DNA of 64,000 nucleotides from an uncultured virus (IMG/VR IMGVR_UViG_3300005617_000584) (IMGVR_UViG_3300005617_000584); one strand, 5' to 3'; shown: positions 1 to 63,330, counted from the first letter of the stretch. The notes: generated by a model not told the origin, from the letters alone. Program-made: numbers and translations.

Positions 1-540
1 AAAAGACCTCAGTACCGGGAATGGGAGCGGTCGGTGCTGGGCAACGCGTCGAAGGCCACCGGGGAAACAGCGAGCCCGATTGTTCGCTCGCGCTGGTTCG
101 ATGAGCGGCGGAGCGCTCTGAATGCCTCCAAAGCGTTCAGGGAGGCCGTGAGCTGGGTGGTAATGATTGGTCGAAGCAGGCCAATCGAATGCCCTAAGCG
201 GGACGTGATGGACTCACGGGCGGCGACTGTGGCACCTGAACACGGTCAGACGAGGCCCGACCCCGCTCCGTCGTGTTTTCCCGCTGCACTGTGGAAGGAC
301 ATAGAGAGGTGAGCCCAAGGCAGGCCGAAAGCACCTCCGAGGGAGCCTTGATCCGGGGATCTGGTGGACGTTCAATGTCCTCATGGGCGAGACCTTTGGC
401 TGTTGTGCATTGCGCCATCAACACTGGGATATATCATCACGGTAACGTGGTGGGCTCCAAGAGGCCCCAGTGCCGGGATTTGGATAGTAGGAAGCCAGTG
501 AAAGGATAACCGGTGGAATACGAGGCCGGTCAGCGGGATT
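1..540 (+). ncRNA. Large ornate structured ncRNA (GOLLD/ROOL-like candidate), probably 5'-truncated by the window edge
   Basis: No convincing ORF. Many nested helices: ggagcgg 24-30/ccgctcc 263-269; ccgtgag 146-152/ctcacgg 213-219; ctgaatgc/gcgttcag 118-140; tcccgctg 279-286/cagcggga 531-538; cactggg 422-428/cccagtg 466-472. Lies immediately upstream of a phage tRNA array. Family identity not verified. Confidence 0.6.
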
Positions 541-546
541 GTTGTC

Positions 547-716
547 GCGCTCGTAGCTCAGATGGGAGAGCAACAGCCTCTTAAGCTGAAGGTCGCTGGA
601 TTATTGTAGACTTCCAATTGGGAAGGGAGAAACAAATGGCACGGGCATCCAAGAAGTAACCGATCAGGTTCATCCTACATGCCATACCACCCGTCCAATA
701 CCAGCCGGGCGCACCA
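547..716 (+). tRNA. tRNA-Lys(CTT) interrupted by a ~94-nt insertion in the T-loop (~602-695)
   Basis: Acceptor gcgctcg 547-553 pairs with cgggcgc 706-712, followed by A-CCA 713-716. D arm gctc/gagc. Anticodon CTT at 580-582. T stem gctgg 595-599 pairs with ccagc 701-705. Removing 602-695 gives the 7-nt T-loop atcaata. Confidence 0.8.
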
Positions 717-728
717 AAAGATTTCCAC

Positions 729-804
729 GGACGAGTAGCTCAAATGGTAGAGCACCTGGCTGAAGCCCAGGGTGTACGCGGATCGATACCGCGCTCGTCC
801 ACCA
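729..804 (+). tRNA. tRNA-Phe(GAA)
   Basis: ggacgag/ctcgtcc acceptor, cctgg-ctGAAgc-ccagg, T-loop atcgata, encoded CCA. Confidence 0.92.
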
Positions 805-811
805 CTCGCTG

Positions 812-886
812 AGTCCCGTAGCCGATAGTAAGGCCCGGGTGCCATCAAATTCCAGATATGCGTAAGCTGGCCTGGACCTCGGGACT
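812..886 (+). ncRNA. tRNA-like element lacking a T arm
   Basis: agtcccg 812-818/cgggact 880-886 stem, then TA and a D-arm-like gcc-gatagtaa-ggc, then a ccggg/cctgg stem. No TTCG arm. Confidence 0.4.
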
Positions 887-890
887 ATTT

Positions 891-964
891 GGCCCCTTAG
901 CTCAGCTGGATAGAGCGTATGGCTACGAACCATAAGGCCGGGAGTTCGAATCTCTCAGGGGCCA
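891..964 (+). tRNA. tRNA-Arg(ACG)
   Basis: ggcccct/aggggcc acceptor, tatgg-ctACGaa-ccata, ttcgaat T-loop. Confidence 0.93.
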
Positions 965-973
965 CGAATCGCA

Positions 974-1114
974 GGCCCGGTCGTCTATAGCGGACATCTC
1001 CCGGACTGGGGGAAAATGGATGCCGTGCGAAGCGGCCTCCGGGCTCATTGTCAGTAGGCTGGATACCGGTCGCGCTCGTGTAAAGGGGTGACGACCCCTC
1101 AACCGGGCCAGCCA
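974..1114 (+). ncRNA. Expanded tRNA-like multibranch RNA
   Basis: ggcccgg 974-980/ccgggcc 1103-1109 stem followed by agcca. D-arm-like gtct/ggac, a 5-bp stem with 7-nt loop, extra hairpins and a terminal agggg/cccct hairpin. Confidence 0.45.
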
Positions 1115-1123
1115 GCTCTTTTC

Positions 1124-1198
1124 GCAGGAGTAGCTCCAAGGTAGAGCACCTGGCTTCCAACCAGGGGGTTGCGAGTTCGATCCTCGTCTCCTGCACCA
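1124..1198 (+). tRNA. tRNA-Gly(TCC)
   Basis: gcaggag/ctcctgc acceptor, cctgg-ctTCCaa-ccagg, CCA encoded. Confidence 0.93.
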
Positions 1199-1315
1199 AT
1201 TGACGCGGTGGGCAGACCCCCGAGTCTGCTGGTGGACGCGCACTGTACCGGGCAAGGACCACCCGAGAAACGCTCCAATGCTGCGCGCCTCAAAACGCGA
1301 CTCCGCGCCAAATTC

Positions 1316-1395
1316 GGGACGGTAGTCAAGCGGCGAAGACTCCAGGCTGTAAACCTGGCGGGAAACCTTCAGAGGTTCGAGTCCTCTCCGTCCCA
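1316..1395 (+). tRNA. tRNA-Tyr(GTA)
   Basis: gggacgg/ccgtccc acceptor, ccagg-ctGTAaa-cctgg, long variable arm, ttcgagt T-loop. Confidence 0.92.
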
Positions 1396-1401
1396 TGAAT
1401 C

Positions 1402-1474
1402 GCAGCGGTAGCTTAACGGTTAGAGCCGCCGCCCTTTAAGCGGTGTGGTCGGCGTTCGAATCGCCGCCGCTGCA
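1402..1474 (+). tRNA. tRNA-Lys(TTT), atypical C33
   Basis: gcagcgg/ccgctgc acceptor, gccgc-ccTTTaa-gcggt, ttcgaat T-loop. Confidence 0.8.
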
Positions 1475-1478
1475 CGAA

Positions 1479-1559
1479 TACGTGGGTCAGGTCGTCCGTG
1501 ATGTGAGACCTTTCCTCCTGTTTGGCCACGCATATTTCGGCAGCGGCCTGACTCACGTA
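1479..1559 (+). ncRNA. Long-stem hairpin RNA with pyrimidine-rich loop (Y-RNA/SRP-like architecture, unassigned)
   Basis: tacgtgggtcaggtcg pairs with cggcctgactcacgta; loop region contains cctttcctcctgttt. Confidence 0.45.
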
Positions 1560-1569
1560 GTGATAATAT

Positions 1570-1646
1570 TGCGGTGATGGAGCAAAAGTGGCTCGCGTGG
1601 CTCATAACCACGAGCTCATTGGCGGCAGTAGCCAACACCGCTACCA
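1570..1646 (+). tRNA. tRNA-Met(CAT), initiator-like, non-canonical T-loop
   Basis: gcggtg/caccgc with 1:72 mismatch, cgtgg-ctCATaa-ccacg, T arm ttggc-ggcagta-gccaa, ACCA end. Confidence 0.75.
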
Positions 1647-1885
1647 TTTGCGCTGAGTCAGGACGAGCCCGGTCGCTGGGCATGCGCAACCAGCAGAAGG
1701 GTGATTCAGGGTAAGCATCACGTGATTCCCTACAGCGCAATCAAACACTTCGTCGGGGGACAAGCTCAGCACAGAGCGGCCGCTCTAAGGCCCCCGGCGT
1801 TGGAGCCTTGAGCTCCACCGGGAGAGGAAGCCGAGCCGGTCTAGAACGTTCCTCCTCCGGCATTTTACACACGAGAGAGGGGACC

Positions 1886-2254
1886 ATGAGCGAGGACAAG
1901 AAAGAAGGGTGGGCGGAGTTCGAAGAGCAACTGGAGCGGATGCCCGGCTGGTCCCGCAAGGATCTCCGGGGGCTCCAGGACAAGATCAAGGAGTCCGCAG
2001 TATTCATCGGCCTGATCCCAGATGACCTCGGCTACTTCGAAGATGTACGAATGGTGCTCCAGATCGGCTACGCTGTCCTTCACGACAAGCCTCTCTATTT
2101 TGTGGTGAAACAGGGCGCGAAGATGCCCGAGTCGTTGCGCAGGCTGGCGAGCGGCGTCGAAGAGTTCAAGGCCCCGGATGATTTCGAGTACGCCATCAAG
2201 AAGCTGTTGAAGCCCGTCACGGAGAAGTACGAAGAAGACGACAAGCGCGGCTGA
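1886..2254 (+). CDS. Hypothetical protein
   Basis: ORF with purine-rich RBS (gagaggggacc) before ATG 1886 and phage-like codon usage. Confidence 0.75.
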   Translation: MSEDKKEGWAEFEEQLERMPGWSRKDLRGLQDKIKESAVFIGLIPDDLGYFEDVRMVLQIGYAVLHDKPLYFVVKQGAKMPESLRRLASGVEEFKAPDDFEYAIKKLLKPVTEKYEEDDKRG

Positions 2255-2261
2255 TGGGAAA

Positions 2262-2337
2262 GCGGACGTAGCTCTAATGGTAGAGCGTTTGCCTTGTAAG
2301 CAAAATGTTGGGCGTTCAAGTCGCTCCGTCCGCGCCA
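2262..2337 (+). tRNA. tRNA-Thr(TGT)
   Basis: gcggacg/cgtccgc acceptor, tttgc-ctTGTaa-gcaaa, CCA encoded. Confidence 0.92.
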
Positions 2338-2738
2338 TCTGCCGCTTCTGTGATCAGTTTATAAAGAAGGGCGCCACGCTGTACTGTTCTAATGCGTGCC
2401 AATGCGACTACCAGTACATGATGTGGATCGGGCATTGGCTCGCAGGCAATGCGAGTGGAGGTGTCAAGCAAGGCGCCTCGAGGTTGATTCGTCGCTACCT
2501 GATCGATCGTGATAGTGAGCAGTGTTCCGAATGTTGCTGGTCAAAAGTGAACGTAAAGACCGGCAAATGCCCAATTGAGCTTGAACACATTGATGGCAAT
2601 GCCGAGAACAATGCTCCATGGAACGTAAGGCTGTTGTGTCCAAACTGTCACGCTCTCACACCAACGTATCGCGCCCTAAACAAGGGCAACGGTAGGCAGT
2701 GGCGTAGAGAACGATATACTAGGGTAGCCCAGCGGTAG
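2277..2738 (+). CDS. HNH homing endonuclease with Zn-binding motifs, overlapping both flanking tRNAs
   Basis: CxxC...YCSNAC, CSEC, ELEHIDGNAENN...NVRLLCPNCH motifs; start codon uncertain. Confidence 0.8.
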   Translation: MVERLPCKQNVGRSSRSVRAICRFCDQFIKKGATLYCSNACQCDYQYMMWIGHWLAGNASGGVKQGASRLIRRYLIDRDSEQCSECCWSKVNVKTGKCPIELEHIDGNAENNAPWNVRLLCPNCHALTPTYRALNKGNGRQWRRERYTRVAQR

Positions 2739-2790
2739 AGGCGGTGCGCTGTTAACGCACATGTCGGAGGTTCGATCCCTCCCCCTAGTG
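2718..2790 (+). tRNA. tRNA-Asn(GTT)
   Basis: actaggg/ccctagt acceptor, gtgcg-ctGTTaa-cgcac, ttcgatc T-loop. Confidence 0.92.
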
Positions 2791-2799
2791 CCTTCGGAT

Positions 2800-2872
2800 A
2801 GGCGCATAGCTCAATTGGTAGAGCGCGAGATTCTGGATCTCGAGGTTCCTGGTTCGATTCCAGGTGCGCCCG
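2800..2872 (+). tRNA. tRNA-Gln(CTG)
   Basis: ggcgca/tgcgcc acceptor, cgaga-ttCTGga-tctcg, cctgg-ttcgatt-ccagg. Confidence 0.9.
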
Positions 2873-2882
2873 AAAGGAACGA

Positions 2883-4181
2883 ATGTCTGAACGCCCAATG
2901 ACAAACCCTGGCGGCTTTCTCGAGACCACCACCTCGACGACCGAACGTCCGCGCCCGCATGTTGAACTCCCGCAGCGCGGGCCGTTTCTCTTTCCGCCCC
3001 CCTACAATACGATCGGCATCCGCCTTACGAACGCCGACGACATGGGGGGCGCAGATAGACTTCGGGATTGTGGATACGCGTACTGGAATAACATCAATGC
3101 CCACCAGGGCCAGCCCACGCTGTTCGTGATGGTGAGCATCAAGGGCCTGGGCGCGTGCCTGTACGAGGTAAATAAAACCACCAATGCCGTGACCCCTCAT
3201 GGCCCGCTCTTCCCTCCCGGCCATCCGCTCGCGAACGAGACCGCCGAGGGCTGGTATTGGTCGTTCACTGATCCCGATGTGCTCTACGTGGCCAACGACA
3301 CGGAACTCTATCGCTATCACGTGGCGGGGCGGCGGCTCGAGCTCGTCGTCGACATTACCCCGATGCCCGTGATCCAGGAACGGACGGACGAGATTCTTCG
3401 GCAGTGGCACTCGAGTGCGGATGATCGCACCCACTCCGTCACCGTCCGCGCCGGGGAAAGTCGCGGGTGGCAAAATCTCGGCACCCTCGTCTACCGTGAG
3501 GGCGTCCCTGCGGATGTGACGTGGAACTATTTCAAGAAGACCGGTCCCCTCGACGAGTCCCACATCGATAAGAGCGGCAACTGGCTAGTCATCAAGGAAA
3601 ACATCGATCAGCGGAACGGCGAAGACAACCGCTTCATTCACGTGCCCACCCGCACCGAGTTTCAAGCGCTCCTCGATGAAAAGGGCGCCGGTGGGCACTC
3701 CGATCTCGGTTATGGCTACATGGTGTCCTGTGACAACTGGGACGTGTTCCCGAATTCGGTTCGACTGTGGAAGCTCGATGGATCGTCCCCGCAAGGCCTC
3801 GTCGTCTATCACGGGCTCAACTGGGATGCCCAGATCAATCACCCCGCTCACGGTAATGCGCGGCCGGGAGACTGGAACTCGCAGTATGCGATTGGCAGTG
3901 GGGCCTCGCGCGTGCATCTCCCGCGCGTGAATGAGATCCTCGCATTCCCGCTGAACGGGAGCCTGCAGGTGCTCGTGATCGCGCCCTGCATGACCGATCT
4001 CGATGCGCCCGGTGGAGGCGGTGTCGGACCGGATTACGATTACATCAAGCTGCCCAAGGCCAATGTGTGTCCGACCGGCGAGTTCGTTCTGTGGACGTCC
4101 AACTGTGGTGGCGAGCGGCTCGATGCGTTCCTGGTGCGCGTCCCTGGACAATTTCTAGGTGGCGCGGTTCCTCCGTGGTAA
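2883..4181 (+). CDS. Hypothetical protein, possible beta-propeller fold
   Basis: 432-aa ORF with aaggaa RBS; recurring beta-strand/turn motifs (WYWSFTDPDVLY, HIDKSGNWLV, VCPTGEFVLWTSN). Confidence 0.75.
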   Translation: MSERPMTNPGGFLETTTSTTERPRPHVELPQRGPFLFPPPYNTIGIRLTNADDMGGADRLRDCGYAYWNNINAHQGQPTLFVMVSIKGLGACLYEVNKTTNAVTPHGPLFPPGHPLANETAEGWYWSFTDPDVLYVANDTELYRYHVAGRRLELVVDITPMPVIQERTDEILRQWHSSADDRTHSVTVRAGESRGWQNLGTLVYREGVPADVTWNYFKKTGPLDESHIDKSGNWLVIKENIDQRNGEDNRFIHVPTRTEFQALLDEKGAGGHSDLGYGYMVSCDNWDVFPNSVRLWKLDGSSPQGLVVYHGLNWDAQINHPAHGNARPGDWNSQYAIGSGASRVHLPRVNEILAFPLNGSLQVLVIAPCMTDLDAPGGGGVGPDYDYIKLPKANVCPTGEFVLWTSNCGGERLDAFLVRVPGQFLGGAVPPW

Positions 4182-4203
4182 TATCCCTTAAGGAGATTCC
4201 CTC

Positions 4204-4380
4204 ATGACTCCAGCCGAACAGAAGGAAGCGGACGCGGCGAAGAAGAAGGCGGATGCGAAGTCTGGTCCGATCGATCCAGAGACTGGGCTACCAAAACCGC
4301 CTGATCCATCGTCGGAAGATGAGCAGCATCGCGCGGGGGTCGGCGACGATACCCCGGCTGGCACCACGCATTCTCATTAA
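4204..4380 (+). CDS. Small acidic hypothetical protein (58 aa)
   Basis: aggaga RBS, ATG 4204, MTPAEQKEADAAKKK..., TAA 4378-4380. Confidence 0.55.
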   Translation: MTPAEQKEADAAKKKADAKSGPIDPETGLPKPPDPSSEDEQHRAGVGDDTPAGTTHSH

Positions 4381-4381
4381 C

Positions 4382-4472
4382 CCCGGAGTACTGCGAATTG
4401 GCACAGAGGCCACACTCAAAATGTGGTGATAGGGTAACCTATTTGCGAGTTCGAATCTCGCCTCCGGGACCA
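4382..4472 (+). tRNA. tRNA-Leu(CAA)
   Basis: cccggag/ctccggg acceptor, ccaca-ctCAAaa-tgtgg, long variable arm, CCA. Confidence 0.92.
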
Positions 4473-4481
4473 CTCATATGT

Positions 4482-4571
4482 GCGCGGGTACTCGAATGGC
4501 ACAGAGGCTACGCTTAGAACGTAGTGGGGCTGACGAGGCCTTTGCGAGTTCAACTCTCGCCCCGTGCACCA
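4482..4571 (+). tRNA. tRNA-Leu(TAG)
   Basis: gcgcggg/cccgtgc acceptor, ctacg-ctTAGaa-cgtag, long variable arm, CCA. Confidence 0.92.
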
Positions 4572-4716
4572 ATTTTCTGACTGTGCGCGTCCTCTGCAGG
4601 GGAGTAATCACTAGGCCACGGCCTGGGGGAATAGTGCGGTGGCGTACCTAATGGCTAATACCCAGATAAAGTCGAGTCACTCACCGCGCACGCGTTTTTC
4701 AGAAACGGAGGGTGTC

Positions 4717-4980
4717 GTGAGCAAGAAGAAGAAATCCGCGAAGAAAATCCCGAAACGGACCAAGCAGTACTACGTGGATTTCTACGATGCGTTCGACGGC
4801 TGGGGTGGGTGGGGCATCTGGCCCGAGCGCCTCTTCAATGATCTCGAGGCGGCGCGAACGTGTAAGGAGGGACTAAACCGAACGCTCGCGATCGGGAATA
4901 AGTCCATGGGCGAGCACTACGGAATCATTTCACGGGTTCTGGGCCATGAGATCGACTGCAACTATCACGGTGCAGCGTGA
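4717..4980 (+). CDS. Hypothetical protein
   Basis: ggaggg RBS before GTG 4717; stop overlaps the next start. Confidence 0.65.
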   Translation: MSKKKKSAKKIPKRTKQYYVDFYDAFDGWGGWGIWPERLFNDLEAARTCKEGLNRTLAIGNKSMGEHYGIISRVLGHEIDCNYHGAA

Positions 4981-5252
4981 GTGCATTTGAGCTGCCAGAT
5001 CGTCAGACGTCATTAGCAGATCGTCGGACGCGAGTGTTCACCTTGCTTGCAGATGGGTTATGGCATTCCACCTCGACGATCGAGTCCCCTGATACCGGGG
5101 GATCCCAAGGAACGCGCCGCCTCCGTGAACTCCGCGCGCAAGGGATTGTCATCGAAAAGCGAAAGAAGGTGGGCAGCGATGAATACGAATACCGCCTAAA
5201 GAATGTGCATGGTCGAGTACCGCGTGTCGTCGCACAGCCAACGCTCTTCTAG
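4977..5252 (+). CDS. Small winged-HTH-like protein
   Basis: RVFTLLADGLWHST...RRLRELRAQGIVIE...YEYRL pattern. Confidence 0.6.
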   Translation: MSAFELPDRQTSLADRRTRVFTLLADGLWHSTSTIESPDTGGSQGTRRLRELRAQGIVIEKRKKVGSDEYEYRLKNVHGRVPRVVAQPTLF

Positions 5253-5258
5253 CGCTAC

Positions 5259-5468
5259 GTGTACATCGTGGTGTGGGGCACCGGCTGGAATATCTGCACG
5301 GAGCACGCCTCCGGCGACTTCTGCGACAACGACAACCTGGCGAGCCGCCGCTACGCCTACAAGACCCGTGACGAGGCGGAGCTCGCCGTGAGGAAATGCG
5401 AGCGGGATCATCCCCTCGTCATTCATCGGATATACTATGTGCGAGAGGTCAAACGACAACAACGGTGA
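5259..5468 (+). CDS. Small hypothetical protein (paralog of 29751-29954)
   Basis: Shared WG.G..CT.H...AV.KCERD...HRI motif. Confidence 0.65.
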   Translation: MYIVVWGTGWNICTEHASGDFCDNDNLASRRYAYKTRDEAELAVRKCERDHPLVIHRIYYVREVKRQQR

Positions 5469-5540
5469 TGTAGCGTAGCGGCCTAACGCATCTGCCTGTC
5501 ACGCAGAAGATCGCCGGTTCGAATCCGGTCATCACCGCCA
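5464..5540 (+). tRNA. tRNA-Asp(GTC)
   Basis: ggtgatg/catcacc acceptor, tctgc-ctGTCac-gcaga, CCA. Confidence 0.93.
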
Positions 5541-5554
5541 TTAGGAGTGCGGAC

Positions 5555-5968
5555 ATGGACATGCCACTGGTCTCACCAACCCCCGTCGATGTCATTAACT
5601 CCAACCACCTCTTCGAGATTGGCGAGTTTACGCTCCACAGTGGTGGAAAAACGAACTTCCGTATCGACTGCAGCGCCTTCACGGATTTCGAGCTCCAGGT
5701 GCTCGCGGCGTACGTGGCCACCAAGATCCCGTCCTACGGGCGCGTGGTGGGCATCCCTCGCGGTGGGATCCGCTTTGCCGAAGCCTTGACCGGGTGGGCG
5801 AAGCCGGGATCAGGTATGGTGCTGATCGCGGATGACGTCTATACCACCGGCACATCCATCGCGCAGACGCGGATGGAGTATCCGAATTCGATGGGCGTCG
5901 TGATCTTCGCACGGGGCGAACCGCCGTGGTGGGTCTTCGCAATGTTTCGAGCGGACCATTTGTCGTGA
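5555..5968 (+). CDS. Type I phosphoribosyltransferase (orotate PRTase-like)
   Basis: FTLHSGGKTNFRIDC and PRPP-binding VLIADDVYTTGTSI motifs. Confidence 0.8.
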   Translation: MDMPLVSPTPVDVINSNHLFEIGEFTLHSGGKTNFRIDCSAFTDFELQVLAAYVATKIPSYGRVVGIPRGGIRFAEALTGWAKPGSGMVLIADDVYTTGTSIAQTRMEYPNSMGVVIFARGEPPWWVFAMFRADHLS

Positions 5969-6204
5969 AGGCTGCTCCGAAGCTTCTGAGGGCTGCTAAC
6001 GATGTATGGACTTTCTTCGTTGGGCTGCGTGACGGATCTATTATTGAATTCGACTCCGCTGATGTCAACGAAGATTGGGTCACGTTACTCGACGTTGTAA
6101 TAAGATCTGGCCCGATGAAAGAAATAATCGATCCTCAGTACTTGACGCGGGGTCTTGATATCCCGATTGCAGATATTGCATGGGTTGTAGAACGAGATTC
6201 TTAA
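5965..6204 (+). CDS. Small hypothetical protein
   Basis: GTG overlapping the upstream stop; more AT-rich than neighbours. Confidence 0.5.
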   Translation: MKAAPKLLRAANDVWTFFVGLRDGSIIEFDSADVNEDWVTLLDVVIRSGPMKEIIDPQYLTRGLDIPIADIAWVVERDS

Positions 6205-6218
6205 AGTCGTGATATTCT

Positions 6219-6312
6219 GGAGGCGTGACCGGAACTGGCAACGGCCCTGTCCCGAAAACAGGTGAGCGGCCTAATACGTCGCATGTGGGTTCGACTCCTA
6301 CCGCCTCCGCCA
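6219..6312 (+). tRNA. tRNA-Ser(CGA), atypical C33
   Basis: ggaggcg/cgcctcc acceptor, cctgt-ccCGAaa-acagg, long variable arm, GCCA. Confidence 0.88.
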
Positions 6313-6319
6313 GTTACAC

Positions 6320-6393
6320 GGCGGGTATCGTCCAATGGCAGGACACGAGATTGTGGATCTCGGAACGTGGGTTCGATCCCCACTATTCGCCCA
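6320..6393 (+). tRNA. tRNA-His(GTG)
   Basis: G-1 plus gcgggta/tattcgc-C73, cgaga-ttGTGga-tctcg. Confidence 0.9.
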
Positions 6394-6407
6394 TCATGAT
6401 TAGGTTT

Positions 6408-6480
6408 GGCGTGAGAGCTGGCGACTCAGCTTGGACTCCAAATCCGAGCATGCGAGGTTCGATCCCTCGTCACGCCGCCA
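6408..6480 (+). tRNA. tRNA-Trp(CCA), atypical D arm
   Basis: ggcgtga/tcacgcc, ttgga-ctCCAaa-tccga, ttcgatc T-loop, CCA. Confidence 0.8.
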
Positions 6481-6487
6481 TCGCAGT

Positions 6488-6563
6488 GGGGACGTAGCTC
6501 CAATGGCAGAGCGGCTGCTTTGCACGCAGCGGGTTCCGAGTTCGAATCTCGGCGTCTCCACCA
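6488..6563 (+). tRNA. tRNA-Ala(TGC)
   Basis: ggggacg/cgtctcc with G3:U70, gctgc-ttTGCac-gcagc, CCA. Confidence 0.93.
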
Positions 6564-6739
6564 AACCTTTTCCTTCCTATAGAGGGAGCGTATGCCGACC
6601 CAGACCCAGGCCCAACCTTCCGAGCGTTTTTCCGTGATCTTTGGCCGGTGTCAGCGCTGCCACGAGGAGTATGTCAAGCACATCCCAATCCTGCCAGAAT
6701 TTCCTGACGAGCCATGCGGCTGCGGAGCGATGGCCGACT

Positions 6740-6991
6740 ATGGACGAGCTTCGCGTTCCTGATCGTTTCGGACGGCGCTGTTCAACGTGCCGCTACGCGA
6801 GCTCCAAACTTACTCACGTGATCTGTGCGCTGGATGACAAGCTCGAGCGCCCGATGCACGTCTGTGGTGCCTACGAGCGTTTCGTGGTGCCGATCCAGTC
6901 AGGGATGAGCATCATCGTACGGCCGCTCTTTGAATCGGCCCACGCCAAGGCGGAGGCGCTCGTGAAAAAGCTCGGCCCGCATGCCTATTGA
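6740..6991 (+). CDS. Small Cys-rich protein (CxxCxY...C...C)
   Basis: CSTCRY...ICALDD...VC; similar to 6981-7283. Confidence 0.65.
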   Translation: MDELRVPDRFGRRCSTCRYASSKLTHVICALDDKLERPMHVCGAYERFVVPIQSGMSIIVRPLFESAHAKAEALVKKLGPHAY

Positions 6992-7283
6992 CATGGACGT
7001 CCACATGGCGGGCGTGCTCGATTCCTACAAGTGCTGCGAAACATGTCGGTACGGTCAGGGTCAGCCTGGCTTCGAGTTGATCTGCCTGCTCGACGATACC
7101 CCGGTGCCGTGTCGGAATCTCTGTAACGCTTGGAACATCGTACGCATCTCTACTACATTCCTGAGTGGGCGCCGCGTTCGGCGGCAACAGCCGCCCTGGG
7201 ATTCCGCCCACGAAAAGGCCGAACTCTTAGCGCTCAAGCAGTCAGATCGGGGTATCGTTCAGCGGCAGGACCCGGCGCTTTGA
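6981..7283 (+). CDS. Small Cys-rich protein, paralog of the upstream gene
   Basis: CETCRY...ICLLDD...LC; 3' end overlaps tRNA-Gln. Confidence 0.65.
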   Translation: MPIDMDVHMAGVLDSYKCCETCRYGQGQPGFELICLLDDTPVPCRNLCNAWNIVRISTTFLSGRRVRRQQPPWDSAHEKAELLALKQSDRGIVQRQDPAL

Positions 7284-7318
7284 ACGCCACAACGGAGGTT
7301 CGACTCCTCCTACCCCGG
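7248..7318 (+). tRNA. tRNA-Gln(TTG)
   Basis: cggggta/taccccg acceptor, ggcg-ctTTGaa-cgcc, ggagg-ttcgact-cctcc. Confidence 0.88.
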
Positions 7319-7369
7319 CATTTCCATGAGCACGAAGTGGAAACACCGCGTTATACTAGTGTATGGGCA

Positions 7370-7651
7370 ATGACAATGAAGCAGGAACGAGAGATAACGG
7401 ACAAGGCGTGGCAGGAACTGGTGATGCGGGCGTGGGCGGATCACATCCTGAACACCTGCCAGCCAACTCCGAACACCTGCCAGCCAACTCCAACGCAGAG
7501 TCCAGCGGCGCTGGCGCTCCGGACCCGATCGCGCCGGTCGGAGCGGGCGAAGCTAGCGTGGGCGAACCGGTCGGGACACTCCAAGGCCATATCGATAGCA
7601 AACCTGAAAAGCGGAAATTCGGGTCGCGGTGGGCCAAGAAAACAGCTGTAA
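7370..7651 (+). CDS. Hypothetical basic protein sharing the RSERAKLAWANRS motif with 9453-9743
   Basis: Frame supported by mostly third-position differences against the 9651-9722 copy. Confidence 0.55.
   Translation: MTMKQEREITDKAWQELVMRAWADHILNTCQPTPNTCQPTPTQSPAALALRTRSRRSERAKLAWANRSGHSKAISIANLKSGNSGRGGPRKQL
7450..7491 (+). repeat. 21-bp perfect tandem duplication
   Basis: gaacacctgccagccaactcc x2. Confidence 0.95.
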
Positions 7652-7778
7652 CGCCGCCCCGGACCCCGAACGATCGCTCAGGATGGCTCCACGGCCCCGA
7701 TTGCCGGTGCTCCATGCTCGCATGCCGAGCCGAGCGCCGCAACCCGCCTACGTAAACGCCCGGCTCTGGTATACTCTC

Positions 7779-7988
7779 ATGAACAAATTCGACACGGCGA
7801 CGGAGTCGATCGCGGAACGCCTGTGGAAGGTGCTCGAGAGGGAGCTGGCCAATGATGCCATCACGGAGCTACAGCTTCGGCGTACCTTTACCGAGGAGCT
7901 GGCGAATGCGCTGGCGGAGATACTGGTGCAGACATTTGTGGATACAGGCGCAGTAAAATCTTTGGTCGAAGCCAATGGACAAGAATAA
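7779..7988 (+). CDS. Small hypothetical protein
   Basis: ATG directly downstream of TGgTATACT (extended -10-like; possibly leaderless). Confidence 0.55.
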   Translation: MNKFDTATESIAERLWKVLERELANDAITELQLRRTFTEELANALAEILVQTFVDTGAVKSLVEANGQE

Positions 7989-8238
7989 GCTCCAGGTGCT
8001 GCGCGGGATCGGGTACGAGGTCAAGGGGTGCTGTGGGCTCTGCCAGCACGCCGACCTGGCCCAGGATCTGTGGGGGACGTGCAAGCGGTTTGGGTACGAG
8101 CATCAGAAGCACTCAGACAGCGCCCGTGAGGTGAGCATCCATGCCTACGGCTCCTGTCCTGACTTCACGGTGGATCTGGCGCGCTCCGGCGCGCTTCGAC
8201 GCTTTATCAATCTCGTGGAAGGGAGTGCATCACCATGA
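7975..8238 (+). CDS. Small Cys-rich protein
   Basis: CCGLCQH...GTCKR...GSCPDF; coupled to the rtcB start. Confidence 0.65.
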   Translation: MDKNKLQVLRGIGYEVKGCCGLCQHADLAQDLWGTCKRFGYEHQKHSDSAREVSIHAYGSCPDFTVDLARSGALRRFINLVEGSASP

Positions 8239-9452
8239 AGGTGTTCTCGGAGCAGGGGAAGGTAGACATGAAGGTCTGGAACGGCACCATGGAGGTGGAT
8301 CACCAGGCCATGGCTCAGATCCGGAACGTGGCGAGCCTGCCGATCGTGTGGCCGCACGTGGCCGTGATGCCGGATTATCACGTGGGGATCGGGTGCACCA
8401 TCGGCACCGTCACCCCGACCGTGAAGGCGATCATCCCGTCGACCGTAGGTGTCGATCTCAACTGCGGCATGATGGCTCTTCAGACCGACATCAACGCCAA
8501 CGATCTGAAGCTCGACCGCCTCTTCAAAGAGATCGAGGAAGCCATCCCGGTTGGGGGGCCTGGCGTGAAGGGATCATGGACCGAGGAAGCCCGCCACGGG
8601 GCGCCCAAGGATGTCGAGGCCCACTGGGAACGGATCGATGCCGACTACCGCGCCCTCATCGCGCGGCATCCCAAGATCCAGGGGACGACCTACACGCAGC
8701 TCGGCACGCTCGGGACAGGCAATCACTTCATCGAGGTTACGATCGAGAAGGGCGGCACCCGTGTGTGGCTGGTCCTGCATTCCGGCAGCCGAGGCCTGGG
8801 CAACCGGATCGGTACGTATTTCATCAGCAAGGCCCGTGAAGAGTGGATGAAGGACCCGGAGCGCATCACGCTCCCGGACAAGGATCTGGCGTGGCTGAAG
8901 GAGGGCACGCCGATCTTTGATGACTACGTGGCAGGGATCAAGGTGGCGACGAAGTTCGCGGAGCTCAACCGGGTCAACATGATGTACCGGCTGCTCGGCG
9001 TCCTCGAAACGCACCTCGACAAGAAGGTGGACACCGGGGGGCACGTGATTTCGTGTCACCATAACTACGTGAGCAAGGAGCGGCACTACGGTCAGGATGT
9101 CTGGGTCACGCGCAAAGGCGCGGTGAGCGCGAAGCTGGGCGAGTACGGTATCATTCCCGGATCCATGGGCAAGGAGGCCCTCACGTACATCGTGACCGGG
9201 CGTGGTAACCCGGAATCGTTCACCACATGCTCGCATGGAGCGGGACGCAACATGAGCCGCTCCAGGGCCAAGGTGGAAATCACCCTCGACGAGCATGTAC
9301 TGGCGACGGAGGGCGTCGTATGCCGGAAGGATCTCGACGTCATCGACGAGTCCCCCAGGGCCTACAAGAACATCGAAGACGTGATGGCCGCCCAGGCGGA
9401 TCTCGTGAAGGTGGAGTATGCGCTCGAGAAAATTCTCAACATCAAGGGCTGA
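8235..9452 (+). CDS. rtcB: RNA-splicing/repair ligase RtcB
   Basis: MPDYHVGIG, GVDLNCGM, LGTLGTGNHFIE, HSGSRG, HHNY, RKGA, IPGSMG, SHGAGR, DESPRAYK motifs. Confidence 0.97.
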   Translation: MKVFSEQGKVDMKVWNGTMEVDHQAMAQIRNVASLPIVWPHVAVMPDYHVGIGCTIGTVTPTVKAIIPSTVGVDLNCGMMALQTDINANDLKLDRLFKEIEEAIPVGGPGVKGSWTEEARHGAPKDVEAHWERIDADYRALIARHPKIQGTTYTQLGTLGTGNHFIEVTIEKGGTRVWLVLHSGSRGLGNRIGTYFISKAREEWMKDPERITLPDKDLAWLKEGTPIFDDYVAGIKVATKFAELNRVNMMYRLLGVLETHLDKKVDTGGHVISCHHNYVSKERHYGQDVWVTRKGAVSAKLGEYGIIPGSMGKEALTYIVTGRGNPESFTTCSHGAGRNMSRSRAKVEITLDEHVLATEGVVCRKDLDVIDESPRAYKNIEDVMAAQADLVKVEYALEKILNIKG

Positions 9453-33796: not shown

Positions 33797-34801
33797 ATGC
33801 CTGGTGGGTACGTAACACTCGACGCGATTGACCTGAACGAAATCTGGTACGGCTGTATCGTCCCAGCGGTAGACGGCTACCGGCGTGTGGATCTGCCGAT
33901 GATCACTTCGCTCGCAATGACCTGGCCGGAACAGATCATGAAGTATGGTCTGACAGCGGCCAACGGGTTCCAGCTGCTGGCTCCTGGGGAGCGCCCGACT
34001 CGGAAGTTCGTGGAAGTTGCGACCGCCTATCCGTTTGTCGATAAGTACGGCTACGGTGTAGGTAGCGATCTGGATACGATCCAGCGCAGCACGGGCCGCG
34101 AAGTCGCCATGGCCTTCAACCGCCCGATGATGGAAGACCCTGAGAACGTTCTGGTGCGCTTTCTCGAGCGCATGATGATCGACCCGGGGACGGCCAATGT
34201 CGGTGGCGGGTTCTACAATGGGGAATTTGCGACCGCCGAGCGAATCACGGCACCGCCGCGCTACGGGCAGCAGATCTTCAACGCGAACCACACCCACTAC
34301 ATCGCGTCCAATACATCGGCCACGTTGGACCTGGACGATTTCACTGAGATGAAGCAGACAATCCTCCATCACGGCCACCGTGGTCAGCTGATGGCCTTCA
34401 TCAACTCCAATGGCGCGCAAGCGCTTGAGGACCTGGCGTCCTGGAATAGCGCCACGATCACCCGCTCGCCGATCTCCGATATGGTCTCGGTGGACGGGTT
34501 CGGTCAGACCTTCCAGCTCTTGGGCATTACGTTCCACGTCACCGAAATGATGCCGACGGGATACGTGCTCATGGTGGAAGGCAACAACGCGCAGAGCGAG
34601 CGCGCCCTGATCATGTTTGAGCCTGCGAATATTCGCGGTCTCCGCATGCACCCGGGTCCGATGAACGATTATCCGTTGGTGGAAGCGTTCTTCGACCGCT
34701 GGTTCGGCGTGAAGGTGTGGCAGCGCGGCGCTGGTGTGTGCCTGTACTACGGGACGCACTCCGGTTCCTATGTCGACCCCACGTTCACCACTGTTCCTTA
34801 A
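33797..34801 (+). CDS. Major capsid protein
   Basis: 334 aa; position after protease/decoration genes; followed by a strong hairpin. Confidence 0.8.
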   Translation: MPGGYVTLDAIDLNEIWYGCIVPAVDGYRRVDLPMITSLAMTWPEQIMKYGLTAANGFQLLAPGERPTRKFVEVATAYPFVDKYGYGVGSDLDTIQRSTGREVAMAFNRPMMEDPENVLVRFLERMMIDPGTANVGGGFYNGEFATAERITAPPRYGQQIFNANHTHYIASNTSATLDLDDFTEMKQTILHHGHRGQLMAFINSNGAQALEDLASWNSATITRSPISDMVSVDGFGQTFQLLGITFHVTEMMPTGYVLMVEGNNAQSERALIMFEPANIRGLRMHPGPMNDYPLVEAFFDRWFGVKVWQRGAGVCLYYGTHSGSYVDPTFTTVP

Positions 34802-44328: not shown

Positions 44329-47300
44329 ATGGCGGACACGAATAGTAACCCGGATATTCTCCTCAGTATTGGTGGAGATCCCGGCCCGCTCTTCAAGCAG
44401 ATCGAGGCCCTCCAGGCTGAGATCAGCAAGCTTGGAACGAATTCGTCTGTCGGTGAAGTGTCTAATGCTCTGGCGGCTACTGGACGGACGGCCGATGTTA
44501 CGAAGGAAAAGGTCAAAGGGCTTAATGCTACCTTCGCCGATATGGCCACCGCGACGAAGAAGGCAGTTGGTGAATCCGAAACAGCCCTCCTGAAGCTGAG
44601 TCGACTTGTAGTTTCCCTCCAGTCTGAACTGAATAAAGGTGGCATTTCTGAAGGGCTCCAGTCACAAATCCAAGCCAAGATTAATGAAGTAAAGCTTCTG
44701 ATTGAGCAGTTGCGTAGTGTTGGCGCAGGCGGAATTACGTTCGATATCTCTGAATTGAAGAATACATCGAATGAATTCCGGAAATTGACAGCGTCGATGG
44801 GGTTGTTTGCTAAGGGTTTCACAGATATGGATGCAGCGATCGCCGCTTCGATGGGCAAGATAGCCCAGGCTGTCGGGGCTGGCGTTGCGGAGTCGCAAGC
44901 TGAATTCGTCGGATTGACGGCGGCGATGGGGGTGTTTGCCAAGGGCTTCGTCGACATGGATGTTCAGATTGGCCTGTCGATGCAGAAGATGGCCCAGGCG
45001 ATCGGGGCTGGCGTAACGGAGTCGCGAACGGAATTTATTGCCCTGACGGCGGCGATGGGGGTCTTCGCCAAGGGCTTTACGGATATGGATGCACAGATTG
45101 GCCTGTCGATGCAGAAGATGGCGGAGTCGATCGGCGTAGGTGTGACTGCATCGCAGACGGAATTCGTTGCCCTGACGGCGGCGATGGGGGTGTTTGCCAA
45201 GGGCTTCGTCGACATGGATGCACAGATTGGTGTGTCCATGCAGCAGATGGCTCAGTCGATCGGGCGTGGTGTCGCGACTGCTGAGACGGAGTTCATCGGA
45301 TTGACAGCGTCGATGGGGCTGTTCGCCAAGGGCTTCGTCGACATGGATGCGAAGATCGGTCTGTCGATGAATCAGATGGCCGCGTCGATTCGGAAAAACC
45401 TAGCGGATATTGCGCTCGCCGAGCGAACGCTCCTGGCGGAACAGTCCGCAGCGGAAGTAAAGCGCCTCCGACAAATTGAGACGCTGATTGCGGCGAATGA
45501 GCGGCTGAAGAGATCTGGATTGGCAAGTGATCCTGCATTCAGGGCGAATAGTAGCGCAATCGCTGATTTGGGGCCAGTGGTTGGTGGAACTGGCATTGCT
45601 AAGACCACTGAAGAAATGTTGCGACTGAAGATTGCTTCGGATGCCGCCGCCAATTCCGCGACCGTCCTTCATGGTGTCATGGGATCGCTGGGCACCCGCT
45701 TTATTAGGACGGCGGTGATCGTTGGCGGAATGGTATTGGCGTTCCAGGCATTGGCGGCAATTAAGGCGATCATCCAGAACGTAATCGACCTTGACGCAGC
45801 CATGACGAAGATGGCGACGACGATGTCGACAGTTGATGAAAAAGCCGCCTTGTTGCCGCAGTTATTCGAGTTGACCCAGCAGGCGATGCGCGAGACGGGG
45901 AAGTCGGCCTCCGAGGCTGGGAAGATCGTCTTCGAACTGCAGAAGGCCATCGGAAATAACGCTGCAGAAATTAAGGGAGCCCTGCTCCCCGCATTGGCAT
46001 TGCTGGTTAGCGGTGAAGCGGATACCGCGCAGGTCGTTCGTGCTCTGGTTGGTGTGTTCAATCTGTATGGAGAGACCCTGGAAGGGGCGACCACGAGCTC
46101 CCAGAAGTATGCGCGGATCGCCGACATCATCACGGTCGTTTCGAGGAATACGGTCGCATCCGCGTCGTCCTTGACGGAAGCGCTCCAAAATTCCGCCGCG
46201 CGTGCTCGCCTCGCTGGATTTGGTCTCGAAGAGCTGACTACGATCCTCGGCCTCCTGCAGAATGCGCTCCAGGCGTCTGGTCGATCAGGCGTTGAAGTCG
46301 CGCGCGTCCTGGAAGCTCTCATTAAGCATACAGCGGATGTACGTGAAATCTTCCAGCTTGATATTAAGCCTGGTGCTACCTCCTACGATGTCCTGCTGGC
46401 ACTTCTTGAGAAGCTCAGTAAGGAGATAGCGAGGTTCGGAACGCTGACGCCGCAAACCCTCCGTGATGTAGAAAAAGCGTTCGCTAATGAAATTCCTGGC
46501 CGCGCCATTGAAGCGTTGGTACTGCAGTTCCCGAAGTTGGCTGGATTGCTGGACAAGACCAAGGTTAGCTGGGGGGCCGCGACTGAGGTCATCACTGAAA
46601 ATCGCCTCTCATTAAGTAATGCGGCCAGTGTCATGGTGAATGAGTATCTGCTAGCCTTGGATAAGGTATTTGCCAAGATTGGTGGAGATGAGGCGACTGG
46701 CAGGTTTGAAACTATTAGTAAGCTGTTTTTGAAGATCGGTGAAAATGTTCGTCAGACTACTCGCGATCTTGAGAATTACGGCATTGCTTATACCGCGTGG
46801 TTGAAGTTAAAGCACCTGGGCGAGGATACCGGATTGACGGGCCGGACAGTCGGGTCGCTTTTCGAAGACCCTTGGGCAAATCAGCGTGTGAAGCCAGGTA
46901 GTGCAGAGGATCCAGTCGTGCAGCAACGCCGACGGGTTGCCCGAGAAACAGCTGAGCTCGATCAAGTAACGCAAGACTATACGATTACGTTGAGTGCGGA
47001 GCAGCAAGCTTATCAGCGCGCGGAAGTGGCTGCGCTTCGCATGAAGGAAGCTCAGGCTGCCGTTGCGGTGGCGACGAAGAAGGTGAATGATGAGCTCCAG
47101 CGTGCCAATCCAAATCTGACGCTCGTCGAGCGCTTGGCGTTTGCGACGGAAGATGTGGCTCGAGCGGAGAAGGAGTATGCCGAAGCGATCGGAAAGGCAA
47201 ATCGCGCGGCCCAGTTCGGAGACAAAAGCCCTGCGGATATCCAGAAAGATCTCGAGGCGGCCGGTCAGAAGCGTAATTCCGCAAAAGCGGCTGAACTTAA

Positions 47301-62818: not shown

Positions 62819-63330
62819 GTTTGGAACCCGAAGGTGATTGCATAGGATTTCAGCTTCAGCATGATGAGGTGCTCTGTCCGCTCCACGAGTTCCCTGGTAT
62901 GAAGATGATGCCCCGGCGTCATCCCGCCTCCGAGCGGCTCCATGAGCTCCTGCAAGAGATGGGTGCCCTCCACGACCGGAAGCAGAAGGATTACGGGACC
63001 GCGACGGATCCGTTTGCGAATGTGCGCGGTTCCCTCGAGTTTGGCGTTCGTCCCTGGGTGGGGGCGATGATCCGCCTCAATGATAAGGTCAAGCGCCTGC
63101 AGTCCCACGCCCAGGGCTCGCCCCTGGCGAACGAGGGCGCGCTCGACTCCATGATGGATATCGCGGTCTATGCGCTGATTGCGTATGTCCTGTACGAGCA
63201 GGACGCCCTCGCCACCCCTCGGCCGGAGGGAGGGTTTTGCATTGAGCAAGTGGCGCATGTAGGATCGAAACCTGATGGCAACGCGACCCCGTCTTCCAAC
63301 GGACAGGAAACTGGGCTTTCAACCCGGTAA
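62815..63330 (+). CDS. DUF1599/nucleotide-modification-associated domain protein
   Basis: KQKDYG...FAN...IRLNDKVKRL...DS.MDIAVYA. Confidence 0.75.
   Translation: MSLEPEGDCIGFQLQHDEVLCPLHEFPGMKMMPRRHPASERLHELLQEMGALHDRKQKDYGTATDPFANVRGSLEFGVRPWVGAMIRLNDKVKRLQSHAQGSPLANEGALDSMMDIAVYALIAYVLYEQDALATPRPEGGFCIEQVAHVGSKPDGNATPSSNGQETGLSTR

Follow-up and report, generated by a model that had tools for sequence, protein, structure and literature searches.

Stem-closed units between the tRNA genes of an uncultured phage may be a mixture of cassettes rather than a single RNA family

RESULTS

Stem-closed units lie among the genes of a phage tRNA array

We analysed a 64,000-nucleotide (nt) stretch of DNA, the window, from the uncultured virus IMGVR_UViG_3300005617_000584 of the IMG/VR collection, in particular the array of transfer RNA (tRNA) genes near its start and the spacers between these genes. 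The window has a G+C content of about 0.59 and is identified as phage DNA by PHROG matches to a major head protein (33797-34801), to tail-related proteins and to an HNH endonuclease. ARAGORN finds 17 tRNAs in it: 16 within 729-7319 (6.6 kb, 2.4 per kb), all on the plus strand, and one at 63285. The array reaches the start of the window and may run past it, so that 16 is the count inside the window. Beyond the ARAGORN set, the array also holds a split tRNA-Lys, an irregular tRNA(CAU) and tRNA-like units. An open reading frame (ORF) resembling HNH homing endonucleases lies inside the array on the plus strand (2340-2738; PHROG HNH endonuclease families, best E-value 8e-14), and the gene for the RNA ligase RtcB (8235-9452, plus strand; Pfam PF01139, E-value 8e-105, 352 bits) follows about 0.9 kb past the last tRNA of the array.

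An initial annotation, made from the sequence, singled out seven spacer units whose ends pair in an acceptor-like stem. Both our reading of the sequence and predicted folds confirmed paired ends in all seven. The closing stems are AGTCCCG/CGGGACT (7 base pairs, bp) in 812-886, GGCCCGGT/ACCGGGCC (8 bp) in 974-1114, CGCGG/CCGCG (5 bp) in 1202-1310, 17 bp including G-U pairs in 1479-1559, 8 bp in 1648-1740, 7-9 bp in 1751-1799 and 7 bp in 4583-4691.

For comparison with relatives we used a metagenome scan anchored on a 432-amino-acid ORF of the array, which returned 80 loci; 60 of these were scanned for tRNAs, and two carried the array. The first, L012, is a 5.5 kb contig with 98% identity in the 432-amino-acid protein; the second, L013, is a 2.9 kb contig with 73% identity. 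Strain variants were collected by aligning contigs of four public runs, including X4, X10 and the RNA run X22, to positions 500-4800 of the window.

Terminal pairing exceeds chance as a joint pattern

To five whole spacers we applied a test for a terminal helix, which had to begin no more than 15 nt from each spacer end. Helices of at least 7 bp were present in four of the five, and none of 3000 sets of five native control segments had four or more at score 7; thus, the pattern as a whole exceeds chance. Taken singly, the observed score was reached by 79 of 2000 dinucleotide shuffles for 805-890, 41 for 966-1123, 611 for 1199-1315, 0 for 1476-1565 and 91 for 4572-4716. Among 3000 native coding segments of the same length, the corresponding numbers were 168, 60, 1089, 0 and 143. 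In 4572-4716 the helix scored is an outer one (4574-4580/4699-4705), not the inner stem of the annotated unit (4583-4589/4685-4691). The pairing of spacer ends therefore stands as a joint property, and does not stand for 1202-1310 taken alone.

Folding energy, which the annotation had named as a check against shuffled controls, separates the units. Relative to 200 shuffles, the z-scores were -0.6 for 812-886, -2.0 for 974-1114, +0.2 for 1202-1310, -5.7 for 1479-1559, -1.3 for 1648-1740, -2.1 for 1751-1799 and -0.3 for 4583-4691. Hence 1479-1559 clearly folds better than its controls, 974-1114 and 1751-1799 lie near -2, and the other four range from +0.2 to -1.3. Two of the proposed boundaries also needed revision: 974-1114 is better described as a core at 974-1045 plus a trailer, and an indel between strains at 4587-4701 does not match the stem at 4583/4691. 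Searches of each unit with blastn-short against the window and all loci returned the unit itself and orthologous positions in L012 and L013. The units have no mutual similarity, and the idea that they form one set or family was not borne out.

A tRNA model built from the array weakly matches two of the units

Because Rfam E-values are multiplied by 4227 families and ARAGORN with relaxed thresholds was uninformative, we trained a tRNA covariance model of our own on 16 ordinary tRNAs taken from the window, L012 and L013; this model, R1, was run on 500-4800 with filters off. True tRNAs scored 28-82 bits. Below them came 1571-1642 (20.9 bits), 974-1046 (10.0 bits) and 812-887 (9.3 bits), and all three alignments were full-length, with ends that coincide with the closing stems. 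A match at 1755-1796 (4.8 bits, E-value 3.3) was not significant, and on the plus strand R1 gave no match in 1202-1310, 1479-1559, 1648-1740 or 4583-4691. In a control of 55 kb of coding sequence searched on both strands (110 kb), three matches reached at least 9.3 bits, the best of them 12.5; at this rate about 0.03 such matches are expected in the spacers (916 nt).

In the relatives, R1 scored 21.2 bits at L013:74-146, the counterpart of 974-1045, and 25.2 bits at L012:4076-4134. The latter, a further core resembling a tRNA, lies in the spacer between tRNA-Asp and tRNA-His; its loop is short, its T loop reads UGCGAUU and it has no acceptor stem. Odd features are common to all three cores (974-1045, its L013 counterpart and L012:4076-4134). 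In place of the anticodon loop they carry a purine at position 33 and then G-A-pyrimidine; a pairing of positions 32 and 38 can shrink this loop to 5 nt; and their T loop is UGCGAAG or UGCGAUU. Of the initial proposal, a tRNA shape is thus borne out for some units: 974-1045, together with its counterpart in L013, is tRNA-shaped and 812-887 weakly so, and four of the seven units have no R1 match.

The Asp-His spacer itself differs between strains. In L012 it is a non-coding stretch of 192 nt (3997-4187), and its counterpart in the window (5541-6218) has two ORFs and a tRNA-Ser(CGA). As judged from the sequences, this difference is a whole segment swapped between near-identical strains.

The core at 974-1045 is a cloverleaf without a canonical anticodon loop

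The core is an irregular tRNA-shaped RNA of 72 nt on the plus strand, with a 7-bp acceptor-like stem (974-980/1039-1045), a D-like arm, a second arm and a T-like arm. The stem is closed by the 5′ sequence GGCCCGG, which pairs with CCGGGCU at 1039-1045. In the R1 alignment all four helices were present and no non-standard pair was flagged, and the 7-bp acceptor stem is stacked on the T arm as in a cloverleaf. The Rfam tRNA model RF00005 gave no match at 974-1045, either at its gathering threshold (29 bits) or at E-values up to 10. In a canonical tRNA the anticodon loop has 7 nt, with U at 33 and a purine at 37, and the T loop carries U54-U55-C56. The second-arm loop here is CGGACUG in the window, UGGAUGA in L013 and CAGAUCG in X10; a purine takes the place of U33, positions 32 and 38 of the window loop can pair, and the T-like loop (UGCGAAG) has a G at 55.

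L013:74-146 is a compact form with the same closure and no trailer, and its cloverleaf is both the minimum free energy and the centroid structure (ensemble frequency 0.47). The pairs of the two sequences were compared by hand and with R1 alignments because the MAFFT alignment misplaces the D arm. Of 24 pairs, four carry changes on both sides, four others still pair after a change on one side, and one is broken. The D-like stem is GUCU/GGAC in the window and GCUC/GAGC in L013; for the stem that follows, CUCCC/GGGGG in the window corresponds to CCCUU/AAGGG in L013. In X10, the listed changes in the core comprise at least five substitutions and one deleted letter (974, in the terminal G.U pair of the acceptor stem); of these substitutions, three fall in the loop, one in a bulge and one in an extension of the T-like helix, and none in the D-like, second or T-like stems.

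The remainder of the annotated unit is a fast-changing trailer (1046-1114, plus strand) that folds on its own at 1057-1113 (z-score -2.6). Its positions 1102-1109 are a second copy of the 3′ strand of the acceptor-like stem, and this copy gives the 8-bp outer stem of the annotation. Among the X10 changes listed, those within 1048-1105 include at least nine substitutions and at least four deleted letters.

A conserved element without a T arm lies at 1751-1860

The unit at 1751-1799 (plus strand) forms a three-way junction, in which a closing stem (1751-1757/1793-1799) is joined by two hairpins, one D-arm-like (GCUC..GAGC) and one with GCUCUAA as its 7-nt loop; a T arm is missing. It is present in the window, L012 and L013, where its three helices are 93-100% paired and two pairs of the closing stem have changed on both sides. 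Two further conserved hairpins follow at 1801-1860 on the same strand, one at 1803-1815 and one with a 12-bp stem (1818-1829/1849-1860) whose loop holds the conserved GGUCUAGAAC; five of the 12 pairs of this last helix, the fifth of the element, have changed on both sides. Over the whole element (1745-1870) in three sequences, 97.2% of the cells of 36 pairs are paired and nine pairs have changed on both sides, a level of covariation reached by none of 500 shuffles and no slid control. Several of these changes give G-U pairs, which argues for an RNA made from the plus strand.

In L013 the element lies directly 5′ of tRNA-Thr with no ORF after it, which makes it more than a leader of the 122-amino-acid ORF. 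We considered whether 1751-1861 might be a single giant tRNA whose variable arm is long, and rejected this, as the outer stem is unpaired in L013.

The helices of this element and of 974-1045 have been kept by compensatory changes, which indicates that selection acts on both as folded RNAs. Lacking a normal anticodon loop (U33 is absent from each), they are probably non-decoding.

Other units come and go between strains

The plus-strand unit at 812-886 (7-bp closing stem) is decayed-tRNA-like: its R1 alignment (812-887) retains the acceptor stem and a portion of the D arm, the anticodon stem is mismatched and the T arm is replaced, so that by its sequence it is probably a decayed tRNA gene. 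In X10 one contig joins position 811 to 891, and another (775-936) keeps the unit. The spacer between tRNA-Gly and tRNA-Tyr (1202-1310, plus strand) has no structural support beyond its 5-bp closure; the 3′ end of this spacer is almost the same in L012 and in the X10 variant.

At 1479-1559, on the plus strand, lies a long hairpin whose folding energy was reached by none of the 200 shuffles; the L012 version has a z-score of -4.2. Of three stem changes in L012, X4 and X10, two give G-U pairs on the plus strand and one gives an A.G mismatch. Its slot in L013 is taken by a tRNA-Gly(TCC), and the hairpin is kept only among close strains.

The unit 1648-1740 belongs to a strain-specific insert of 97 nt (1645-1741, plus strand) with a terminal inverted repeat of 8 bp and a CA on each side. 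The insert is missing in L012 and L013, and in contigs of both X4 and X10 position 1644 is joined to 1742, with two shared letters. A comparable terminal stem, no more than 8 nt from the indel ends, was reached by 24 of 3000 native segments, and the window holds no second copy of the insert. The unit at 4583-4691 (plus strand), past two tRNA-Leu genes, is also strain-specific. It has the inner 7-bp stem and an outer TTTCTGA/TCAGAAA, and neither R1 nor Rfam matches it. In L012, 115 nt (4587-4701) are missing between almost identical flanks; the ends of this indel form no terminal stem, and 2253 of 3000 native segments had the same score.

True tRNAs vary in the same way: a tRNA-Tyr cassette (1310-1397) is missing in L012 and X10. 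Units and true tRNAs thus come and go whole between strains, which indicates that the array evolves by gain and loss of cassettes. With 812-886, 1648-1740 and 4583-4691 missing from close strains, the seven units do not look like a deliberate set.

The split tRNA-Lys(CTT) at 547-722 is a further polymorphic site. Its T loop is interrupted by a 94-nt insert (602-695), and an otherwise identical X10 contig joins 601 to 696; without the insert, a 76-nt tRNA-Lys(CTT) is called by ARAGORN at default settings. Pairing is possible between the first 5 nt of the insert and the 5 nt that open the 3′ exon, and the insert has no terminal stem. A bulge-helix-bulge arrangement was rejected, the bulge at the 3′ junction being missing.

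An irregular tRNA(CAU) and a contig from an RNA library

Next to the annotated units, at 1571-1642 on the plus strand, lies an irregular tRNA with anticodon CAT (loop CUCAUAA, T loop GGCAGUA, D loop AAAAGUG) that ends in ACCA and escaped both Rfam and ARAGORN at default settings. Its counterparts lie at L012:206-277 and L013:315-386. Across three sequences of the region 1566-1647, all 20 pairs are 100% paired and six have changed on both sides, a result matched by two of 500 shuffles. A search of a genome collection with the D-arm and anticodon-loop motif of this gene led to three cyanobacterial tRNA arrays (L217-L219, near position 4000 of each), and its 5′ half has 81-85% identity over 41-43 nt to the tRNA-Met of each. 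This similarity suggests a shared origin of phage and bacterial arrays.

A 287-nt contig from a rhizosphere metatranscriptome covers 802-1088 without a mismatch and spans 812-886, tRNA-Arg and most of 974-1114. As it runs through unit, tRNA and unit, it would, if it is RNA, demonstrate co-transcription rather than discrete products or ends. Elsewhere in 500-4800 the RNA run X22 gave no exact cover, which is not evidence of silence.

Surroundings of the array and further searches

The 432-amino-acid ORF (2883-4181) sits among the tRNA genes and is matched by neither Pfam nor PHROG families. Its homologues number in the hundreds, with 43-57% identity; many are longer and have Ig-like or fibronectin domains, and some are named Vicinamibacterales/Acidobacteria. 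By these similarities the ORF is probably a host-derived gene, and its homologues give hints of an acidobacterial host. The public runs that contain this stretch are, by label, soil and rhizosphere metagenomes. On the plus strand, the spacers hold no promoter-like or terminator-like sites, and tRNAs for Val, Ile, Met, Pro and Cys are missing from the ARAGORN calls in the window.

Several further differences between strains were seen. An X10 contig skips 111 nt (2131-2243), from the 3′ end of the 122-amino-acid ORF up to just before tRNA-Thr, and the same ORF is wholly missing in L013. The tRNA-Trp at 6403-6480 is irregular (Rfam gives only a 30-bit tRNA-Sec match, below threshold); it is called by ARAGORN in the window and not in the near-identical L012 (4266-4335). 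The two versions of tRNA-Ala(TGC), at 6488-6563 in the window and at L012:4343-4418, differ at many positions between near-identical flanks, which looks like allele replacement through recombination. Upstream of the array, the stretch 1-548, annotated initially as a giant RNA and running off the window start, gave no Rfam match at E-values up to 5. Far from the array lies an ORF of 2943 amino acids (44329-53160).

Wider searches added little. Protein-pattern scans of IMG/VR with the 432-amino-acid ORF, the 122-amino-acid ORF and the major head protein found no relative, and tblastn of two window ORFs against phage records found no close relative. With blastn against 50,697 phage records, window positions 1-8000 had matches at true tRNAs and the HNH gene alone. 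The 11 IMG/VR loci anchored on RtcB (45-62% identity) come from other phages, most of them jumbo phages, and were set aside as not comparable. An exact-motif scan of IMG/VR with the 15-mer TGGCGGCAGTAGCCA gave at least 119 matches, of which the best 12 by alignment were coding or chance matches, none resembling the tRNA-like gene; the 17-mer TGCCGTGCGAAGCGGCC gave six chance matches, none with tRNAs nearby; and a motif from 1751-1799 gave no match in its motif scan. A scan combining D-arm and T-loop motifs returned two loci, one of which (L220, an IMG/VR contig of about 100 kb) has tRNA fragments and a relation to the window that is not clear. These fragments form a cluster at L220:2780-3070 (isolated T arms with acceptor 3′ ends, and one 5′ half) with weak R1 scores of 11-16 bits, and ARAGORN calls no tRNA within the 6 kb examined.

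DISCUSSION

A mixture of cassettes is the reading we lean towards

On balance, and by a modest preference, we read the seven units as heterogeneous cassettes of different ages and kinds within a mobile phage tRNA array, not as one RNA family. Part of them would be tRNA-derived, namely 974-1045 and the more decayed 812-886, and so would the neighbouring 1571-1642; their acceptor-like stem would be an inherited acceptor stem. Two or three units are, in our reading of the alignments, under selection for shape. Others would be replaceable, self-folding filler, namely the dispensable 1648-1740, 4583-4691 and 812-886, and 1202-1310 with its lack of structural signal. The array may be transcribed as a long precursor, from which host RNase P and 3′ nucleases would excise the tRNAs and free the units as by-products; the closing stems would fold each spacer on itself and so spare its neighbours. 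Exchange of cassettes among co-infecting relatives may be driven by the HNH endonuclease. The units might conceivably also act as decoys or in RNA repair.

Several observations weigh against this reading. In five of the seven units the folding energy is no better than that of shuffles, and Rfam has no family match for any unit, at the gathering threshold or at E-values up to 10. The R1 E-values are weak (0.09 for 974-1046 and 0.15 for 812-887 over 8.6 kb, with an error of about five-fold by the tool's own warning), and one match in the coding-sequence control scored 12.5 bits. ARAGORN at 70% thresholds had to be discarded as evidence, since coding sequence and shuffled spacers gave 5.9 and 2.9 matches per kb, respectively. 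Among the 60 loci scanned, the array is carried by L012 and L013 alone, in part by each, so that covariation rests on two to three sequences, and 812-886 and 1202-1310 have no usable homologue beyond near-identical strains. The contig at 802-1088 could be carried-over DNA. Finally, processing, stability and the role of the endonuclease are deduced from sequence alone.

Other explanations account for part of these observations. If the closing stems were chance products of GC-rich spacers, selected by a free choice of boundaries, the units would be neutral filler that merely separates tRNAs. The five units that fold like shuffles, the three that are dispensable in close strains, the silence of Rfam and the single-spacer P-values (0.02-0.06 for three spacers, 0.3 for one) all suit such a view. 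It is nevertheless unlikely for the array as a whole, given the joint test (0 of 3000), the z-score of -5.7 at 1479-1559, the covariation in 1745-1870 and 974-1045, and two tRNA-model matches that fall exactly on unit boundaries where about 0.03 were expected. An origin of the strain-specific units (1648-1740, 4583-4691, 812-886 and the tRNA-Lys insert) as small mobile or intervening sequences, excised at the closing helix like those of bacterial 23S rRNA genes, has presence/absence polymorphism and clean junctions in its favour, together with the 8-bp terminal inverted repeat of 1645-1741 (24 of 3000 native segments) with CA on both sides and the insert inside a tRNA T loop, the tRNA being intact in the variant. 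The absence of 1645-1741 from both L012 and the more distant L013 favours insertion. We still regard this origin as highly improbable: the inserts have no mutual similarity and no shared termini, and no second copy exists in the window or the fetched loci. Thus the several copies with shared termini that would mark them as resembling miniature inverted-repeat transposable elements were not found among the units (blastn-short, window and all loci). Moreover, the indel at 4587-4701 cuts its own stem, the insert at 602-695 lacks a terminal stem, and a true tRNA-Tyr is equally polymorphic, so that ordinary deletion or recombination explains the pattern.

Two more readings take the tRNA shape at face value. 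The gaps in the phage set (ARAGORN finds no tRNA for Val, Ile, Met, Pro or Cys) might be filled by working irregular tRNAs, a Val/Ile reader at 974-1045, whose loops read GAC or GAU at the anticodon position, and a Met/Ile reader at 1571-1642, with its normal 7-nt loop CUCAUAA, its ACCA end and its likeness to a cyanobacterial-array tRNA-Met. According to the available parts of two reports, 23 of 26 Anabaena array tRNAs are charged in vivo (PMC8421152) and irregular tRNAs occur in acidobacteria (PMC5389517). We consider this improbable for the units, because 974-1045 and its relatives have a purine for the universal U33 and a 32/38 pairing that leaves a 5-nt loop, the supposed anticodon varies between GAC and GAU among close relatives, 1751-1799 lacks a T arm, and the R1 score of 974-1045 (10 bits) is far below the 46-82 bits of true tRNAs; decoding is plausible for 1571-1642, which is not one of the annotated units. 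The explanation offered with the initial annotation was that the units are deliberate tRNA mimics or decoys, which absorb host anticodon nucleases or other tRNA-targeting defences and whose cut RNAs RtcB reseals. RtcB does adjoin the array, three cores (974-1045, its L013 counterpart and L012:4076-4134) are tRNA-shaped and share the short loop with purine-G-A-pyrimidine, and the shape is kept through compensatory changes. As an account of all seven units we think it unlikely, since at most two or three are tRNA-shaped, three are missing from close strains, no sequence is shared among them and the loop motif fits no nuclease target tested. A narrower version, which we also put forward as a long shot, is that this phage group keeps a small non-decoding, tRNA-shaped family (the same three cores, each with G at T-loop position 55) together with 1751-1860 as mimics that would absorb a host tRNA-directed factor. 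That factor could be a nuclease, a modification enzyme or a sensor, and the mimics would act with the in-array endonuclease and RtcB during infection.

The mixture of cassettes that we favour bears on how such arrays are read. Phage tRNA arrays are increasingly viewed as weapons against tRNA-cutting host defences, and members that are selected as non-decoding tRNA shapes would be candidates for RNA mimics, not translation aids. If true, this would make the role of the small RNAs in phage tRNA clusters, long a puzzle, accessible to tests. On the practical side, standard tRNA finders missed both the probable tRNA at 1571-1642 and the insert-split tRNA-Lys(CTT). The gaps in such arrays thus appear neither empty nor uniformly meaningful.

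Comparison with known systems

Among the RNAs of phage T4, species I and II are stable, are processed together with tRNAs and have no known function. Our units resemble them as non-tRNA RNA genes among same-strand phage tRNAs, and differ from them in sequence, no similarity being found with blastn for window positions 1-8000 against the 50,697 phage records. In the available part of its description, the T4 tRNA cluster contains small non-tRNA RNA genes and a homing-endonuclease gene, and its content varies between related phages (PMC2330249). Unlike in T4, the units described here are heterogeneous and partly strain-specific, they are known from sequence alone, and the endonuclease is of the HNH rather than the GIY-YIG type.

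Plant mitochondria have t-elements, tRNA-like structures that mark RNA ends, and bacterial 23S rRNA genes can carry stem-closed intervening sequences. Both are tRNA-shaped or stem-closed cutting signals that vary between strains, and they may serve as a mechanistic analogy only.

Polycistrons of soil origin, probably acidobacterial, contain tandem irregular tRNA-like sequences, some of which are charged and unused in translation, and regulatory non-coding roles have been suggested for them (Mukai et al. 2017, PMC5389517). Our phage locus likewise comes from soil, with acidobacteria as its likely setting. The RNAs of the polycistrons have 8/4 or 9/3 acceptor/T-stem arrangements and long variable arms or an extra loop (PMC5389517), whereas those described here combine a stem of 7 bp with a T-loop G at 55 and, instead of the anticodon loop, a short loop.

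A further close parallel is with L-arrays. As far as the accessible text goes, these are passed on horizontally, lie beside a homing-endonuclease gene with rtcB nearby, and include three pseudogenes among 26 array genes; that array tRNAs may sponge toxin RNases is a speculation of the same authors (Santamaria-Gomez et al. 2021, PMC8421152). The definition asks for at least 20 tRNA genes, in one orientation and at about 2 per kb or more (Tran et al. 2016, PMC4758250); inside the window our array lies just below this count, with 16 ARAGORN tRNAs in 6.6 kb, a number that may grow beyond the window start. The accessible parts of these L-array publications do not describe conserved anticodon-less cloverleaves or stem-closed spacers. 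Within the literature consulted, which was not searched for this point specifically, the covariation-conserved anticodon-less cloverleaves and the T-armless junction inside such an array therefore appear to be new. In other respects the phage locus is L-array-like: its tRNA genes are dense and on the same strand, a homing-endonuclease gene (HNH, 2340-2738) and rtcB (8235-9452) are in the neighbourhood, as in the published parts of those descriptions, and the 5′ half of 1571-1642 is common to the tRNA-Met genes of three cyanobacterial arrays. A dense single-strand array with an HNH gene inside and rtcB beside it fits the horizontally mobile L-array kind.

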